Shown piece after piece: positions 24,654 to 60,919 of a stretch of DNA of 64,000 nucleotides (within the stretch, counting starts at the first letter, position 1; each line of letters begins with the position of its first letter). Below the pieces are notes generated by a model. That model saw nothing but the letters and a program-made list of their open reading frames with translations. It was not told where the DNA came from and did no database searches. The position numbers and the translations under genes are program-made. The DNA lies in contig CAWBOS010000012.1 in assembly GCA_963790475.1 (NCBI GenBank), positions 704,001-768,000 on the forward strand. The letters are read 5' to 3'. This DNA comes from an uncultured delta proteobacterium. Lineage in GTDB: Bacteria > Desulfobacterota > RBG-13-43-22.

Positions 24654-24697
24654 CAACAACCCGAAACCCGCAATGGCTCCGGCTAAACCTCAAATTC

Positions 24698-24865
24698 CCC
24701 GCTCGTTCAAGTTTTAGCACCGCGTACCGTAAGAGGCTTTCGCCTCAGCCACCTTAAGCAAGCCCTTAATCCGGGAATGCCTGTTCTACCCTAATGCGCC
24801 GCATCTTTGGATGCTTTTGGGCAGTGGCCTGTGTGTTACTCGGGAGCCTCACCTACCGAGGACTA
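24698..24865 (-). ncRNA. M-box (ykoK) Mg2+-sensing riboswitch
   Basis: CTCGGTAGGTGAGGCTCC...GCCACTGCCCAAAAGCATCCAAAGATGC...GGGTAGAACAGG...TTAAGG...GTGCTAAAACT...ACGAG matches the remembered ykoK consensus. Terminator and Mg-transport genes lie downstream. Confidence 0.9.
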
Positions 24866-24894
24866 ACTTCATCCTAAATACAAAAATCAAGGCT

Positions 24895-31728: not shown

Positions 31729-31748
31729 GCACCAAGGAGGAAGTTCTT

Positions 31749-33116
31749 ATGGATAAAAAACTCAGGGTGGTCATTGCCGGAGGATCGGCAGCCGGTCCAA
31801 CGGCGGCCAGTACGGCCCGACGAAAAGATTCTACCGTCAGTATAACCCTGCTGGAGAAGGGGGAGTACATCTCATATGGGGCCTGAGACCTCCCCTATTA
31901 CATCGGGGATGTAATCAAGGACTCCAATGAGCTGATTGTCAGGACACCCCAAGAATTCCAAGAAAAACAACAGATAGAGATCAAGCTTAAACACCAGGTC
32001 CTGGCCATTGACCGGGAAAAAAGTCAGCTGCGGGTCCTCTCCCTGGAAACCGGAGAAGAATTCTTTCTCCCCTATGACCGGCTTGTTTTGGCCATAGGAG
32101 CCCGTTCCCGAAAACTGGGAGTTGCAGGGGAAGAATCCCAAAATATCTTCACCCTGAAGGAAATGGCGGACGGCCTTCGAATCCGAAGTTTTATAGATCA
32201 AAATAATCCCCGGAAGGCGGTGATTGTCGGGGCTGGTTATATTTCTTTAGAAGTGGCGGAGGCCTTACGGGAACGTGGGATCGAGACCACTCTCCTCTAT
32301 CGGGGGAAATTTCCTTACAGCGGGTTGGAACCGGAGCTGGGACCGATCATCGTCAAAGAATTGGAGGCCCACGGTGTGCGTTATGTCGGGGAAATCCAGC
32401 CGCGGTTTTTTGAAACCGAGGGGACTGCAGCCCGTCAACTGGTAACCGATCAGGGGGACTTTCCTGCCGATCTTTTTTTCGTCGGGGTTGGGATAGTCCC
32501 TAATATCGAGATAGCCCGGGAGGCGGGAATCATCGTTGGAAAATCCGGAGGAATTCAGGTCAACTCTCTGATGCAGACCAGTGATCCCAATATCTGGGCG
32601 GCCGGTGACTGTTGTGAGAAACTCCATTTGGTGACCGGTCAACCCCATCTGGCCCCCTTGGGAGATGTGGCCAACAAGGAGGGGAGGGTGGCTGGTGAAA
32701 ACGCCGTTGGAGGCCAGGCCGAATTTCATGGAATCGTTGGGGCGGCCTGTGTGAAGGTTTTCGACCTGGAAATCGGCATGGCCGGGATCAGTGAAGCCCA
32801 GGCTAAAAAGATAGGTTTCCCGGTTATAACTCAGGTGGTGGAAGCTTCTTCCCGGGTAGAATTTTTTCCTGGGGCCAAACCGACTTTATTGAAGATCGTA
32901 GCCGATCAGTCGTCGGGCCGCCTCCTGGGCGGCAATTGGATCGGAGGGGACGGAGAGGCCCGTAAAATAAATGTCCTGGCCGTTGCCCTCTATCAGGGAA
33001 TGACTCTGGAGGCCATCTCCCGATTAGACCTGGCTTATTCCCCTCCTTTCAGCCCGGTCTGGGATCCCTTTTTGATTGCGGCCAATCTTCTTAAAAGAAA
33101 AGTTGCTGTTAAGTAG
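31749..33116 (+). CDS. CoA-disulfide reductase / NADH oxidase family flavoprotein, predicted selenoprotein (UGA at codon 46)
   Basis: AAGGAGG RBS and ATG 31749, then IAGGSAAG...ISYGA-TGA-DLPYY, in frame with ORF 32088-33116 (GAGYI, WAAGDC, AYSPPFS). SECIS-like hairpin follows. Confidence 0.88.
31897..31915 (+). promoter_or_regulatory. Putative bacterial SECIS hairpin
   Basis: ATTACATC-GGG-GATGTAAT; loop starts 18 nt after the TGA at 31884-31886. Confidence 0.7.
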
Positions 33117-50375: not shown

Positions 50376-50606
50376 TCAGTCTCCTGTTCGGGTCAAGGCC
50401 AGGGCTTCGCGCAGAATTTTGAGACTTTCCATGGCCGCTTCTTCATCGATTTTATGTAAGGCAAAACCGGCATGGACGATGACATAATCCCCCACTTTGG
50501 CCTCATCCAACAGAAGGAGACTGACCTTCCTGATGACCCCATCGACATCGATGATGCCGAGTCCCTCTTTAATTTCCACAATCTTTGACGGTATGGCCAG
50601 ACACAT
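50376..50606 (-). CDS. hypC: Hydrogenase assembly chaperone HypC/HupF
   Basis: MCLAIP, GDYVIVHAGFA. Confidence 0.95.
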   Translation of the reverse strand: MCLAIPSKIVEIKEGLGIIDVDGVIRKVSLLLLDEAKVGDYVIVHAGFALHKIDEEAAMESLKILREALALTRTGD

Positions 50607-51099
50607 AATCAGTACTCCTAAGGTGGTAAGGCGCTCCCAGGCGGGTAATTTCCGTCAGGACCCTTTCGATCATCGAATCCACTTTTGTCTGGATTAGAGG
50701 CGTAAGTTCGGTACTGAGCGTTTCAATGTCCTGGGGCTCCACGCCTAAAATGACCGTTTGAGGAACTTTATCAAGGGCCTGGCACAATGTCAAGGCTTCC
50801 AGAAAGTCCACTTGATGGAGGGAGTTTTTAGCCCTGATTCGAGCCGGTATCTCCTCCCCTTCCAATCGAATAAATGTACCGGGGCGGCATTTATTTCTGA
50901 CGATATCGATGACGATGAGATAATCCGCCTCGGATAGGAACCCTAGTAGATTCATTCCCAGCACACCCCCATCGATAATTGAGACGTTGTCTGAAAAGGC
51001 ATAGAGGTCCTGTATTCTTTCAATAACCCGCACCCCGAATCCCTCATCCCTGAAAAGGATATTACCGATGCCTAAGATCACGATCAAGGGTGAATCCAT
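50569..51099 (-). CDS. Hydrogenase maturation protease (HyaD/HybD family)
   Basis: LGIGNILFRDEGFG, IDGG, SLHQ. Start placed at ATG 51099. Confidence 0.9.
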   Translation of the reverse strand: MDSPLIVILGIGNILFRDEGFGVRVIERIQDLYAFSDNVSIIDGGVLGMNLLGFLSEADYLIVIDIVRNKCRPGTFIRLEGEEIPARIRAKNSLHQVDFLEALTLCQALDKVPQTVILGVEPQDIETLSTELTPLIQTKVDSMIERVLTEITRLGAPYHLRSTDYVSGHTVKDCGN

Positions 51100-51118
51100 T
51101 AGTCCTTGCTTTGAATGA

Positions 51119-51147
51119 AAGGAGCGGGTTTCAAACCCGCCCCTACA
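51119..51147. repeat. GTAG-type REP-like palindrome
   Basis: Minus strand TGTAGGG-GCGGGTTT-G-AAACCCGC. Confidence 0.55.
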
Positions 51148-51200
51148 AAACCCCATCAGATTTGATGAATATGCATTATTGACAAACCCGTAAGAAGTCG

Positions 51201-51479
51201 TCACCCCTGATAGCTCGCTCCAGGAAAGTTCTTTCGAAGATAATGGACCAGTTTGTCTGCTTCTGGAGGTTGGGTAAAAGTCTTATGCTCGCACTGTTTA
51301 GAAAAAATGCTCACGCTCCAACTCTTCTTGTGGACATCCAGTCCCACGTAAATCGATTGACCCGAAAAATCCAATTTGTTAATCTGTACCACGGCAAGTC
51401 TCCTTTCGGTTTGTTTTTTTACCCTAAAAAAAGTATATCCGAAAGCTTCGAGACTTGCCTTTCTTTTTCAATCATAAGG
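51201..51479 (-). mobile_element. IS110-family remnant: 5' end plus the first 63 codons of the transposase
   Basis: YVGLDVHKKS DEDD N-terminal motif, truncated. Leader hairpin GGCAAGTCTC/GAGACTTGCC. Sits between halves of a REP-like element. Confidence 0.75.
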
Positions 51480-51616: not shown

Positions 51617-53257
51617 TTAAAGTGCCTTGACCTTGTATACCTGGTTGGAGTCGGGGTCAATGACATGAATCCCGCAGGCGATGCAAGGGTCAAAGGAATG
51701 GACGGTCCGAAGTATCTCCAGGGGCTGTTTTGGATCGGCCACCGGCGTTCCGATCAGGGCCTCTTCCACCGGTCCCATCTTGCCCTTTTCATCCCTCGGG
51801 CAGAGGTTCCAGGTGGAGGGAACCACCATCTGGTAGTTTTCGATCTTCTTATCCTTGATCTTGATCCAGTGACCCAAGGCACCCCTGGCCACATCATTCA
51901 AACCGCAACCGATGGCCGTGCCCTCGGGCATCTCCCAGTGCTCATAGGTCTTGATATCCCCCCCTTTGATATGGCCGATCAGGTCGTTGATCCAGCCTTC
52001 CATGGCATTCCCGATAACCACGGTCTCCAGGCCCCTGGCCGCTGTTCGGCCCAGGGTGGAAAAAAGGGCCTCCACCGGAACTCCCAGCTTTTTCAAGGTG
52101 TCATCCACGAGGGCATTGATCCCTTTATTCCCCCTGGCATAAGCGACCAGCACTCTGGCCAGAGGTCCCACTTCACAGGGTTCTCCGTCATACCGCGGGG
52201 ATTTGAACCACGAATATTTGCCCTCCGGTCTATAATCCCCGTGCTGGGGTCTGGTTTCCCCTTCCCAGGGGTGCTTTGGGGATCCTGCTTCGTACCAGGA
52301 GTGGGCTACGTGTTCGGTCACCTTTGCTTGATCCGCCATCTTTATACCCTTCAGGTCCCTTTTCATGATCACCCCCCGGGGCAGGAAAAGGTCTTCGGGT
52401 TCCTTGTCTCCCAGAGGTAAATCACCCCAGGCCAGAAAATTGGTAGTCCCGCCGATGGCCCCCCAATCTTTATAAAAGGAAGCGACGGCCAGGAGATCGG
52501 GGATATAGACGTCTTTGATAAATTCCTGGGTTTCCTTCCAAACGTAAAAGAACTCGGTGATACGTTCAGGATTCAGGTCGGCCACGCAGGTAATACCGCC
52601 CACGACCAGAGATTGGAGATGGGGGTTCTTTCCGCCGAATATGGCGTGCATCCTGGCTGCCTTGGCCTGGAGGCGAAGGGCTTCGATATAATGGGCCGCA
52701 GCCATCAGGTTGGCCTCGGGGGGAAGTTTATAGGCCGGATGCCCCCAGTAGGCATTGTTAAAGGGGCCGAGTTGACCGCTGTCGACAAAGGTTTGGAGTC
52801 GTTGCTGCACGTTCTTGAAATAGGCCGTACCGCCGGGTGCGTTGGAGACGTTATCCGAAAGGACGGCGGTTTTGACCGGGTCTGCTTTCAAGGCGCTGAC
52901 GATGTCCACCCAATCCAAGGCATGGAGATGATAGAAATGGACCAGATGATCCTGCTGGAACTGGGCCCCGTGCAGAAGATTCCTCAGGATGCGTGCATTG
53001 TCCGGAATCCTGACTTTTACCGCATTTTCAACTGCCCTCACCGAGGACAGAGCATGGGTGTAAGTTCAAACCCCGCAGGCGCGCTGTGTAAAGTGATGGG
53101 CATCCCGGGGATCCCGGCCCTGCAAAATAATTTCGATACCCCTGAACATGGTGCCTGAACTCCAGGCATTAACCACCTTGCCCCCAGCCACCTCCACCTC
53201 GATCTTGAGGTGGCCTTCTATCCTGGTAATCGGATCAATCGTTATTTTCGTACCCAT
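51617..53257 (-). CDS. Periplasmic group-1 [NiFe] hydrogenase large subunit with in-frame UGA (predicted Sec) in the N-terminal CxxC
   Basis: IDPITRIEGH, RGIE...QRACGV-TGA-TYTH reads in frame into ORF 51617-53041 (546 aa total). C-terminal DPCIACGIH plus a cleavable tail. SECIS-like hairpin. Confidence 0.88.
53032..53050 (-). promoter_or_regulatory. Putative bacterial SECIS hairpin
   Basis: CUGUCCUC-GGU-GAGGGCAG (8 bp, one G-U pair); loop starts 23 nt after the UGA at 53068-53066. Confidence 0.7.
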
Positions 53258-53323: not shown

Positions 53324-54268
53324 CTAACTCTTTATATTCTCTCTGTAAAAGGGCGTCATCTCATCCCAAAAATTGGGTTCGCTGCAGCCGATGCAGGGAT
53401 GTCCGGCCTGAATAGGCCAACTGGTGCCTCCATGGAACTTGACCGTCGGGCAATTATTATAAGTTTCAGGACCTTTACAGCCCATCTTGTAGAGGCAATA
53501 ACCCATGCGGGCCTCGATTGAACCGAATTCAAGAACAAAATTATTGGCTTCAAAATAGGATCTTCGCGGGCACTGGTCATGAATCGTGTTGCCGTAGGCA
53601 AAGAGAGGACGCCCCAGGTCGTCCAGGGCCGGAAGTTTGCCCAGAAGGAGATAATTGACCACGGTCCCTACCAGATTGACCGGGTTGGGGGGACAACCCG
53701 AGATATTGACCGGCTTTATCCCCAGGGCCTCTCCGACACTTTTGTACCCGCCGGGGTTGGGCTTGGCTGCCTGAATGCCTCCGAAACAGGCACAGGTACC
53801 CATGCAGACCACGGCCAGGGCCTGGGGGCAGACTTCCCGGGCGATTTCCAGGAAGGGCCGGCCGGCAATTTTTCCGTAAGCCCCGTCATACTTGGTGGCG
53901 ATGGCGCCATCAACAATGCAAATGAATTGCCCTTTGTATTTTTTAACTGCGGCCTTCAGATTTTCTTCAGCCTGATGCCCTGCTGCGGCCATGATCGTTT
54001 CGTGGTATTCTATGTCGAGAATATCCAGAACCAGGTCGGCAACCCAGGGATACATGGATCTCAAGAGGGCCTCCGTACAGCCGGTACACACCCCGAAGGA
54101 GAGCCAGATCACCGGAGGCCGCTGTTTGGGCGCGGCGAAGACCTCGGCCACTTTCGGGACGAACGATGACGAGAGCCCCAGGGTGGCGGTAAGAAGGGTA
54201 CAGAACTTCATGAAGTCTCTCCTCGAGACTCCTTTTTGCTCCAGTCGTTTATAGAAATCCTTTTCCAT
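53324..54268 (-). CDS. [NiFe] hydrogenase small subunit with Tat signal
   Basis: SRRDFMK, CTGC, GTCA, GCPP, HDQCPRR, CLYKMGCKGP, SWPIQAGHPCIGC (Pro indicates a [3Fe-4S] medial cluster). AGGAGG RBS before ATG 54268. Confidence 0.93.
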   Translation of the reverse strand: MEKDFYKRLEQKGVSRRDFMKFCTLLTATLGLSSSFVPKVAEVFAAPKQRPPVIWLSFGVCTGCTEALLRSMYPWVADLVLDILDIEYHETIMAAAGHQAEENLKAAVKKYKGQFICIVDGAIATKYDGAYGKIAGRPFLEIAREVCPQALAVVCMGTCACFGGIQAAKPNPGGYKSVGEALGIKPVNISGCPPNPVNLVGTVVNYLLLGKLPALDDLGRPLFAYGNTIHDQCPRRSYFEANNFVLEFGSIEARMGYCLYKMGCKGPETYNNCPTVKFHGGTSWPIQAGHPCIGCSEPNFWDEMTPFYRENIKS

Positions 54269-54287
54269 TGTCACCTCCTGAAAACAA

Positions 54288-55100
54288 TTATTCTTTTGGT
54301 CCAATTGGTATCATTCCTCTCTTTTCAATGATCTCCTTCCCTTTGTCCGACAGGGCGAAGTCAATGAAGGCCTTGGCCGCTCCCGCCGGTTTCCCCTTGG
54401 TGACAAAGGAAAATTCTTGAAAATAAGGATACCCTTTGTCCTTCGGGGAAAGACCATTGACTTTGACCGTCTTGACTCCTCCTGCTTTTCCTATGGCCCC
54501 CTGGGTAACGAAAGAAATGGCCGCGGGAAAACGTTTGACTACTTCCAAGGCCATGGTGGAAAGATTAGTCATGATGTCATAATGGGTCTCTTTTCGTTTC
54601 ATGGCCAGATGTCCGAAATTCTCGTAGGCGGCGGTGTTTTTCCCGGGAACGACCAGAACAATCATCTCCTCCGGCCGGCCTAATTGTTTCCAGTTGGTGA
54701 TTTTTTTGCCGAAGATATTCCGGAGTTGTTCTTCAGATAGATTAGCCAGCCGATTCCTGGCGTTGACAATAATCGCCAAAGGGTCTTTGCCGAAGAGCGT
54801 CTCCACAAATCCGCCCTCCTTAAGGGGGTATGTCCCCCCCCGGGCTATACTGGAGATGTCGCTCTGTCCGGACATGAGACGGTTCACCGCGACGGAAGAA
54901 GAGGACACATACAACTCCACATCAATCCCCGTGGCTTTGGTAAAAAGCTCAAGCCTTTCCTTTTCAAAGGCTTCGTAAACCTGGGAAGAGCAACTGTACC
55001 TCAATTTTTCTTGGGCCTGGACGGCCGGAGTCAGGAGCATGATCCAAGAAACCAGGATGGAGGCCACAACCGTTACAACCAATGCCAATCTTCTTATCAT
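54288..55100 (-). CDS. Stand-alone periplasmic binding protein (PstS/PBP-like)
   Basis: Signal peptide, DPLAIIVN, GKKITNWKQLG, FIDFALS. Ends 19 nt before the small subunit start. Confidence 0.8.
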   Translation of the reverse strand: MIRRLALVVTVVASILVSWIMLLTPAVQAQEKLRYSCSSQVYEAFEKERLELFTKATGIDVELYVSSSSVAVNRLMSGQSDISSIARGGTYPLKEGGFVETLFGKDPLAIIVNARNRLANLSEEQLRNIFGKKITNWKQLGRPEEMIVLVVPGKNTAAYENFGHLAMKRKETHYDIMTNLSTMALEVVKRFPAAISFVTQGAIGKAGGVKTVKVNGLSPKDKGYPYFQEFSFVTKGKPAGAAKAFIDFALSDKGKEIIEKRGMIPIGPKE

Positions 55101-59499: not shown

Positions 59500-60919
59500 T
59501 TAACGTTCAACGTGATCGATCAGAGTACCATCCTCCTCCCTTAGCTCGATAATCATCGGCATGGCCCCAATGGCATGGGTGGAGCAGGAAAAACAGGGAT
59601 CATAGGCCCGGATGGCCGCTTCCACCCGGTTCAACATGCCCTCGGTCAATTTCTTCCCATCCACAAAGGACTTGGCCACCATTTCCACGGATTTATTGAT
59701 GGCCCAATTGTTATGCCCGGTAGCGACAATCAGATTGACCTTGGTCAACATCCCGTTTTTGTCGGTTTTATAATGATGGAACAGGGTCCCCCGAGGGGCC
59801 TCTAAACATCCCACCCCTTCACCGGTCAGACTATTCGATTCCGTCACCAGATTCGTGGAAAGGACCTCCGGGTCCATGAGGATTTCTTTGGCTCGTTCTA
59901 TGGCATAAAGGTCTTCAATCAGGCGGGCGTAGTGATACCATAAGGTGCCCTCTACCGGTTTACCTCCCCCCAGGGCCTTAAAATTTCCGAATTCCTCATT
60001 GGCCAGAGGGGTATTGATTTTTTCAGCCACATTCAGCCGGCCCAAAGGTCCGACCCGGTAGGTGCCCTCAGGATAGCCCATCTTGCGGTAATAAGGGAAT
60101 TTCAGATAGGACCAATCTTCCACATGCTCGGCAATAACCTCCAGATAATTTTGGGGATCGAATTCCTCCAGCGTTTTCCCGGTCTTGTCCGTTAAACGAA
60201 TCCGGCCGTCGTACAACTGCAATCCCCCCTGTTCGTCTACCATCCCCATGTAGCCTGACGAAAAAACCGCATATTTATCCACCAAATCCCGGTTGGCCTC
60301 AAACCAACCTTTAGCCACGGTTAAGGCGAGTCTTAATCGTCTCCATCACCTCATCAATCCGGCTCAAAAGATCGTCACAATCTTCGGCGGAAAGAGGGGC
60401 ATTAACCCCCCCGGGAATGGAATGAATGGGATGAACCCGTTTCCCGCCCAGTTTTCGGATAATTTCCTGACCGAAAGCCCTGGACTGGACCGCCTTCAAG
60501 GCCAATTCCGGATTGGCCTGGATGACCCCCACCACATTTCGAATGGCCGGGTCGGCATCGAACCCCAGCAGCATATCCGGACCGGCCAACTCAAAGAAAT
60601 GCATGGAGTGGGATTGAATAAACTGCCCCATATGCATCAATTCCCGAAGGAGCTGGGCCGTTCGGGGAGGGGTCACCCCGACGATCCGGTCACAGGCCTT
60701 GGCCGAGGCCAGATGATGGCTGACCGGACAAATTCCACATATCCGTGGCGTTATTTGAAGCATTTCAAAAAAGGGACGCCCTTCGGTGAATTTCTCAAAC
60801 CCCCGAAATTCATTGACATGCATAAAGGCGTTTTCCACTTTCCCTTTGGCGCCCATATTAATGGTTACTTTGGCGTGACCCTCTATCCTGGTTACGGGTT
60901 CTATCGTGATTTTCTGCAT
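59500..60919 (-). pseudogene. hoxH: Group 3d-type [NiFe] hydrogenase large subunit with one +1 frameshift
   Basis: EPVTRIEGH, RGFE, PRICGIC; EAPRG, DPCFSCSTH. Removing one base near 60331 gives a 472-aa ORF. Confidence 0.8.

Follow-up and report, generated by a model that had tools for sequence, protein, structure and literature searches.

Organisation of the hydrogenase locus

We analysed a 64,000-nucleotide window from the genome of an uncultured delta proteobacterium (contig CAWBOS010000012.1). Our subject is a [NiFe] hydrogenase large-subunit gene with an in-frame TGA. Two open reading frames (ORFs) on the minus strand, 53066..53257 and 51617..53041, join on translation into a single hydrogenase frame. 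This frame has 546 codons (53257..51617) and the TGA at 53068..53066 is its sole interruption. An AGGAG sequence is positioned 6 nucleotides ahead of the ATG at 53257. The protein, of about 550 amino acids, matches profiles NF033181 (591.7 bits) and NF007778 (569.3 bits) and has both metal-binding motifs (RACGV-U and DPCIACGIH, where U denotes the predicted selenocysteine, Sec). The TGA is found in the context QRACGV-TGA-TYTH. Codon 64 replaces the second cysteine of the N-terminal RxCGxC nickel-binding (L1) motif, while the C-terminal motif contains cysteine only. Downstream is a hairpin, CTGTCCTC-GGT-GAGGGCAG (53050..53032), that resembles a selenocysteine insertion sequence (SECIS). The stem has 8 base pairs, including one G-U pair, and begins 15 nucleotides past the UGA; the GGU loop is 23 nucleotides past it. 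An earlier note, made from the sequence alone, had described the 546-residue frame, the TGA at the second L1 cysteine, the hairpin and the all-cysteine C-terminus. This description was accurate.

The genes are ordered small subunit, large subunit, protease, with the small subunit upstream and the protease downstream. The small-subunit ORF spans 53324..54304 on the minus strand, with a likely start at the ATG at 54268. It matches TIGR00391 (407.1 bits) and carries a twin-arginine signal (TIGR01409, 28.9 bits; cut-off 16.7). The protease, a HyaD/HybD-family maturation endopeptidase (50569..51204, minus strand), scores 166.1 bits against TIGR00140, above the cut-off of 151.8. The operon thus has its own maturation protease, as the earlier note had said. 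The true start of this gene is probably downstream of 51204, as the profile match opens only at residue 41 of the ORF. For the same reason, a 63-amino-acid ORF between the large subunit and the protease (51201-51392, minus strand), with no NCBIfam or Pfam match, may be spurious. Among the annotated neighbours in the window, no cytochrome b or HybA-like gene adjoins the hydrogenase genes.

We compared both subunits with solved structures in the PDB. The best match for the large subunit was the periplasmic [NiFe] enzyme of Desulfovibrio vulgaris Miyazaki (1h2a_L, 727 bits, residues 5-545), followed by the D. gigas, D. fructosovorans and D. desulfuricans enzymes. Desulfovibrio-type periplasmic enzymes filled the top 21 rows, ahead of Allochromatium, Hyd-1 and Hyd-2. 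The Allochromatium, Escherichia coli Hyd-1 and Hyd-2, and Ralstonia large subunits scored 500-613 bits, and those of classical [NiFeSe] enzymes merely 339-352 bits. Similarly, the small subunit scored 382 bits against 1h2a_S and 179-205 bits against NiFeSe small subunits. The first block of the large-subunit alignment is gap-free and pairs U64 with Cys84 of 1h2a_L. In the small subunit, SWP aligns with NWP of 1h2a_S; we take the proline to be the marker of a medial [3Fe-4S] cluster. NiFeSe-type small subunits have a medial [4Fe-4S] cluster and cysteine instead of that proline. The structures 1h2a, 2frv, 1frf and 1e3d presumably all belong to HydDB group 1b. These comparisons support a resemblance to the standard periplasmic, Desulfovibrio-type (group 1b-like) [NiFe] hydrogenases with their own protease, which is the type that the earlier note had proposed.

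The Desulfovibrio periplasmic enzymes (1h2a, 2frv, 1frf, 1e3d) are the best solved relatives of both subunits. They also share the small-large-protease gene order, the twin-arginine signal and the absence of an adjoining cytochrome b or HybA-like gene. They differ in having a bridging cysteine (Cys84 in 1h2a_L) where the window gene has UGA. The classical [NiFeSe] enzymes (D. vulgaris Hildenborough HysAB and the Desulfomicrobium baculatum enzyme; 5jsu, 1cc1) belong to the same superfamily. In these too, one nickel ligand is encoded by UGA, and SelB and a SECIS element are needed. However, their selenocysteine is the first residue of the C-terminal motif (DPUxxC), a terminal nickel ligand, whereas that predicted here is N-terminal. 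A classical HysA-type identity is ruled out by the all-cysteine DPCIACGIH motif and by scores far under the cut-offs for HysA (NF045518, 431.7 bits; cut-off 780) and the NiFeSe small subunit (NF045520, 246.2 bits; cut-off 470). An origin separate from the enzymes with C-terminal selenocysteine, also suggested in the earlier note, is supported.

Conservation of the TGA and the hairpin

The genus was represented by 14 whole genomes, including that of the window. In 8 of these, an orthologue has TGA at the same column (9 loci, 89-96% identity). Another two encode only a cysteine-type enzyme, 61-62% identical, and the remaining four had no match at 1e-200. We also searched an even sample of 401 genomes from the phylum. 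TGA forms were found at 76-81% identity in four of them (G096, G163, G272 and G328), and cysteine forms from 74% downwards. The TGA was verified at the same column in G096, G163 and G328; in G272 it falls inside a UxxU motif. Among the 120 protein-database relatives listed, cysteine homologues at this column reach 84% identity, and 7 are forms of 474-475 amino acids with 87-95% identity. These short forms start with (V/M)RAVE just past the TGA, exactly where a gene caller that reads the TGA as a stop would restart.

Species-representative genomes were scanned with the pattern Q-R-x-C-G-V-TGA-T-x-x-H, which returned at least 119 stretches. At least 112 of the 119 listed parse as hydrogenase large subunits with an in-frame TGA. 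The other seven comprise two copies of the same gene clipped by the locus end, one that was parsed as cysteine-type and four non-hydrogenase sequences. According to database labels, the listed loci come from about six phyla: Thermodesulfobacteriota/'Deltaproteobacteria', Chloroflexota, Nitrospirota, Spirochaetota, Rokubacteria and Nitrospinota. All are metagenome-assembled genomes (MAGs). The C-terminal motif is all-cysteine in every full-length Sec-type locus (96/96). The search for a conserved TGA column that the earlier note had proposed therefore gave a positive answer. The comparison supports conserved recoding at the position of a ligand that bridges Ni and Fe, rather than a private nonsense mutation.

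Three observations concern individual relatives. Group 1 large subunits merely 52-55% identical to that of the window also have TGA at the same column (L027 in G020, G016:C24, L048, L067 and L083, among others); these are from Chloroflexota, Nitrospirota, Spirochaetota and Rokubacteria MAGs. The orthologue in G013 (L013) has a second TGA at the conserved tryptophan of NAYWGHP (TGG to TGA), which is probably an error or lesion. In the G003 orthologue (L017), the frame shifts between the N-terminal part and residues 150-546.

The hairpin overlaps codons for the peptide TYTHxLSSVRAV. As a control, we took cysteine-type genes that encode this same peptide from metagenome contigs (14 loci). All 8 pairs form in 43 of 43 Sec-type sequences but in none of the 14 cysteine-type sequences, where only 4-6 of the 8 can form. 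Five codons (TCC, TCG, GTG, AGG and GCA) are invariant in the 43 Sec-type sequences, which are mutually related and do not represent 43 independent events, while flanking codons vary. The cysteine-type genes use TCT, TCC, TCA or TCG, mostly GTA, then AGG, AGA, CGT or CGC, and GCN. Likewise, the hairpin (columns 19-37) is near-invariant across 61 distinct Sec-type sequences that share the window's protein type, but third codon positions on either side vary. Covariation within the window's own clade was uninformative as the hairpin hardly varies, and the cysteine-type control served in its place. The conserved hairpin that the earlier note had proposed to look for is present. By comparison across genomes, rather than from any single fold, the hairpin is under selection together with the UGA.

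Other protein clades have a different hairpin sequence and register at the same place downstream of the UGA. In a Chloroflexota-dominated clade (20 distinct sequences, 6-bp stem), compensatory changes are evident. Pair 22-36 is A-T in 12 sequences, T-A in 6 and T-G in 1; pair 25-33 is T-A in 18, T-G in 1 and G-C in 1. When 57 Sec-type sequences from various other clades were pooled, RNAalifold found no consensus structure because their hairpins are in different registers. Hence, pairs were counted for each protein clade. The minimum free energy of the 50 nucleotides after the codon did not separate Sec-type from cysteine-type sequences (-14.2 and -14.0 kcal/mol, respectively). Every hairpin class has a G in the apical loop, and the same is reported for Group 4 Sec hydrogenases (Takano et al. 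2026, PMC13582414).

We built a FastTree phylogeny of 253 large subunits: 96 Sec-type loci, 7 shortened database proteins counted as Sec-type and 150 cysteine-type proteins. Sampling was biased, with Sec-type rows from the pattern scan and cysteine-type rows being the best matches of the window protein, and the counts are rough. The tree needs 22 changes between Sec and Cys, or 15 once branches with support below 0.95 are collapsed. The window's clade has 16 leaves, all Sec-type (support 0.995), and its sister is a cysteine-type clade (support 1.0) at 83-84% identity. Within the window's protein type, Sec clades that lie apart have letter-identical hairpins. From this we infer that the trait arose once and then reverted many times from TGA to TGY, or was transferred; many separate origins seem less likely. 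The frequency difference between Sec-type and cysteine-type proteins is at most 0.43 at any alignment column, and co-adapted residues were not detected. In these alignments, the exchange of Sec and Cys looks like a plug-in change. So frequent a natural alternation is more suggestive of fine tuning than of a new mechanism.

Proposed decoding of the UGA

Selenocysteine machinery is encoded in the genome. Profile matches were found for tRNA-Sec (selC; 74.3 bits, cut-off 47), selA (629.5 bits), selB (390.6 bits) and selD (394.1 bits), all above curated cut-offs. The selD gene itself contains one TGA. These checks, and a search for tRNAs that might insert cysteine, had been proposed in the earlier note. 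ARAGORN identified 50 tRNAs in the genome, a 20-contig bin. One has a UCA anticodon; it measures 98 nucleotides, its extra arm is long and its discriminator base is G. A G at this position specifies serine/Sec identity and not cysteine. The single UCA tRNA with a G discriminator, in a bin of 20 contigs, speaks against a cysteine-accepting recoding tRNA. A second selA-like region was seen outside the window (G000:C13:443305-444664). It is in four pieces in different frames with one TAA; the intact selA is on contig C20.

We propose that the product is a large subunit, belonging to an uptake [NiFe] hydrogenase of the periplasmic, Desulfovibrio type (group 1b-like). SelB and Sec-tRNA(Sec) would decode UGA codon 64 as selenocysteine, guided by the hairpin that starts 15 nucleotides downstream. 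After maturation, nickel and iron would be bridged by the selenolate of residue 64 in place of a thiolate, with cysteine kept at the three other ligands. The replaced ligand would be the equivalent of E. coli Hyd-1 C79 and of Cys84 in the D. vulgaris Miyazaki enzyme. The small subunit would leave by the Tat route, bringing the large subunit along, and the adjoining protease would cut the C-terminal extension after metal insertion. The bridging role assigned to the conserved column at 53066..53068 (minus strand) follows Takano et al. 2026 (PMC13582414). In that paper, the predicted bridge between Ni and Fe is the Sec of an N-terminal CXXU, and the residue that opens the motif is a ligand without a bridging role.

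An engineered enzyme bears on this proposal. Hyd-1 has two terminal and two bridging cysteines, and variants with Sec at each ligand position (C76U, C79U, C576U and C579U) were built and assayed (Evans et al. 2021, PMC8020662). The C79U variant matured. It retained more H2 oxidation than the other three Sec variants, at 13% of the native level, and its KM for H2 was lower (PMC8020662). This activity shows that the bridging position tolerates selenium. C79U is like the enzyme predicted here in having Sec at the equivalent ligand position of a Group 1 hydrogenase that matured and was active. It differs in being artificial, UAG-programmed, EF-Tu-driven, and part of an O2-tolerant membrane-bound enzyme; it is not naturally selected.

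Several observations count against our interpretation. The window gene, and every natural N-terminal-Sec hydrogenase, is known from sequence alone. Taken singly, the hairpin fold is unexceptional (z = -1.71, with 13 of 200 shuffles folding equally well or better). At gathering scores, an Rfam scan of the window found no SECIS family, just an M-box riboswitch. On the tree, Sec-type and cysteine-type forms alternate often, so that an enzyme with cysteine at the UGA site clearly works as well. Contamination of the genome bin is 9.68%, and there is a frameshift in a hydrogenase gene nearby (59500..60919).

Read support, which the earlier note had asked for at 53066, is weak at best. Every public run matched fewer than half of the gene's sampled words, and all comparisons were with assembled (Logan) contigs. 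The best runs were three DNA runs from one study (shares of 0.21-0.33) and two metatranscriptome libraries (0.12 and 0.05). The TGA is covered by a DNA contig (52970..53167, 1 difference) and an RNA-library contig (53064..53250, 2 differences). Among the 40 differences listed, with 173 unlisted, none falls at 53066..53068. With contigs only and part of the differences listed, this check is a further point against us. The contigs from two RNA libraries that overlap the gene do not show transcription.

We weighed three other explanations. The UGA could be recoded by SelB and the hairpin but with cysteine inserted, wholly or partly, by a tRNA of the ReC kind or by tRNA-Sec mischarged at low selenium. 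Takano et al. 2026 (PMC13582414) state this caveat for Sec hydrogenases identified in silico, and cysteine is the common state at the UGA column (150 of 253 tree rows). The tRNA data described above, with selA and selD both present in this 20-contig bin, point the other way and we consider cysteine insertion unlikely. The TGA could instead reflect decay or poor polishing of this region, as a nonsense mutation or an error of assembly, so that no full-length protein is made. The contamination of the bin and the frameshift at 59500..60919, in a gene that is intact in relatives, are in line with this idea. However, 8 of the 14 genus genomes share this TGA, as do more than 100 further genomes at species level, and each has an intact frame after it. 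Furthermore, synonymous sites in the hairpin are frozen only where the TGA is present and, although this is weak evidence, the contigs from two other runs list no difference at the codon. An error or lesion is close to refuted.

According to the remaining explanation, ribosomes terminate at the UGA, a new start is made at the GTG at 53041, and the pieces of 63 and 474 amino acids form a split enzyme. Gene callers do yield exactly these pieces. Yet the break would lose a metal ligand, and the GTG is inside the hairpin with no ribosome-binding site ahead of it. That TGA is kept rather than any stop, together with a selected hairpin, fits recoding. We regard a split enzyme as very improbable. Our preferred interpretation is a functional selenoprotein gene, in which a recoded UGA would place selenium at the bridging-thiolate position of a Desulfovibrio-type periplasmic [NiFe] hydrogenase. 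We put the probability of this at roughly 0.87.

A second gene in the window also has an in-frame UGA, at 31884..31886, which the earlier note had cited as a sign of active recoding. This gene (31746..33116, plus strand) encodes a pyridine-nucleotide-disulfide oxidoreductase (Pyr_redox_2, 193 bits) of the CoA-disulfide reductase/NADH oxidase type. The UGA, in the context ISYGA-U-DLPYY, is at the redox-active cysteine position. Orthologues were found in 13 genus genomes; 12 of them keep one TGA, and that in G001 has TAA in the match. The in-frame UGA and its conservation thus held up. The downstream hairpin (7 bp, TTACATC-GGG-GATGTAA) was spotted by eye only, and RNAfold detected nothing special downstream of the UGA (z = 0.13). 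Conservation of the codon supports a second selenoprotein gene within the window.

The frameshifted gene mentioned above encodes a group 3-like [NiFe] hydrogenase large subunit (59500..60919, minus strand) with the motifs PRICGICPVSH and DPCFSCSTH. It is present as ORFs of 202 and 272 amino acids, with the frameshift near 60311-60318. Relatives have an unbroken frame of 476-482 amino acids, and a 98% identical intact copy is found on contig C5 of the same genome. The frameshift suggests an indel from assembly, a pseudogene, or that the bin contains a second strain. The M-box (magnesium) riboswitch is at 24691-24867 on the minus strand (118.6 bits; gathering score 44). Remaining neighbours of the operon are unrelated to hydrogenase: a PstS-like binding protein, a response regulator, an MFS transporter and a LiaF-like protein.

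Hydrogenases with predicted N-terminal selenocysteine

A CxxU form of hydrogenase large subunit was described as 'FrhA' by Zhang et al. 2007 (PMC1976440). Baltazar et al. 2011, as cited by Takano et al. 2026 (PMC13582414), gave two Group 1 and one Group 3 N-terminal CxxU sequences with a predicted Ni-Fe bridge. Takano et al. 2026 (PMC13582414) themselves described 47 Group 4 sequences in which the N-terminal motif is CXXU, UXXC or UXXU, of which 27 are CXXU. In the available text of other sources, a 2026 review of the prokaryotic selenoproteome lists hydrogenase alpha subunits as UxxC only, and Tamura et al. 2016 describe only C-terminal Sec. The literature accessible to us yielded neither a survey of Group 1 CxxU/UxxU sequences nor a characterised natural N-terminal-Sec enzyme. 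The earlier note was therefore right to doubt that such an enzyme has been structurally characterised. The novelty that it implied did not survive: CxxU was in print in 2007 and 2011, the Group 4 survey appeared in 2026 and more than 100 such genes are in public genomes. The window gene is a further member of the published CxxU kind, not a new kind.

With UGA at the second N-terminal cysteine and cysteine at the other three ligands, the window enzyme matches the CxxU definition of Takano et al. 2026. Like published N-terminal CxxU hydrogenases, it has an all-cysteine C-terminal motif and a mosaic distribution of Sec and Cys, and is known from sequence only. It differs from the published Group 4 CxxU set in being a Group 1, Desulfovibrio-type periplasmic enzyme from an uncultured genus of Thermodesulfobacteriota. 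The breadth of occurrence found here (at least 112 species-level genomes) is far beyond the two Group 1 sequences cited for Baltazar 2011.

Related genes have TGA at both L1 cysteines (R-T-U-G-V-U). This UxxU clade comprises 8 species-level genomes from at least four genera and two families (L167:1501-3138 in G272, L204, L205, L206, L207, L208, L210 and L212). The large subunits are Group 1b-like and 76% identical to that of the window. Their genes have the same CTGTCCTC-GGT-GAGGGCAG hairpin after the second TGA and encode a C-terminal motif with cysteine only. UXXU has been called 'previously unrecognized' and reported for Group 4 only (Takano et al. 2026, PMC13582414). We found no published report of a Group 1 UXXU in the sources accessible to us, and more Group 1 cases may be given in the supplements to Takano 2026 and Evans 2021. 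If made as predicted, a UxxU enzyme would have selenium at both terminal and bridging positions.

Gene callers cut CxxU genes into pieces of 63 and 474 amino acids. Hence, such genes are mis-annotated in most MAGs, and surveys of hydrogenases and of selenoproteomes undercount them. Tentatively, at a little under even odds, N-terminal-Sec Group 1 hydrogenases may constitute a large, mostly unannotated natural class, and not just an oddity of two sequences. This class would span at least 112 species-level genomes from about six phyla, with at least 15 switches between Sec and Cys and a UxxU sub-clade of eight species.

Work on the benefit of selenium in hydrogenases has used Sec as a terminal nickel ligand, and data for bridging selenium come only from one engineered E. 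coli variant. A natural bridging-selenium enzyme in the best-studied structural class, that of the Desulfovibrio-type periplasmic enzymes, would permit direct comparison of sulfur and selenium at the bridge. The comparison would be aided by natural cysteine sisters at 84% identity, with no other residue consistently different. If the N-terminal-Sec enzymes of Group 1 are indeed produced as predicted, a Ni-(mu-Se)-Fe core would be common in anoxic sediments and soils. Bridging selenium may alter catalysis, and would presumably have been selected for a catalytic or stability property unlike that of the classical terminal-selenium enzymes.

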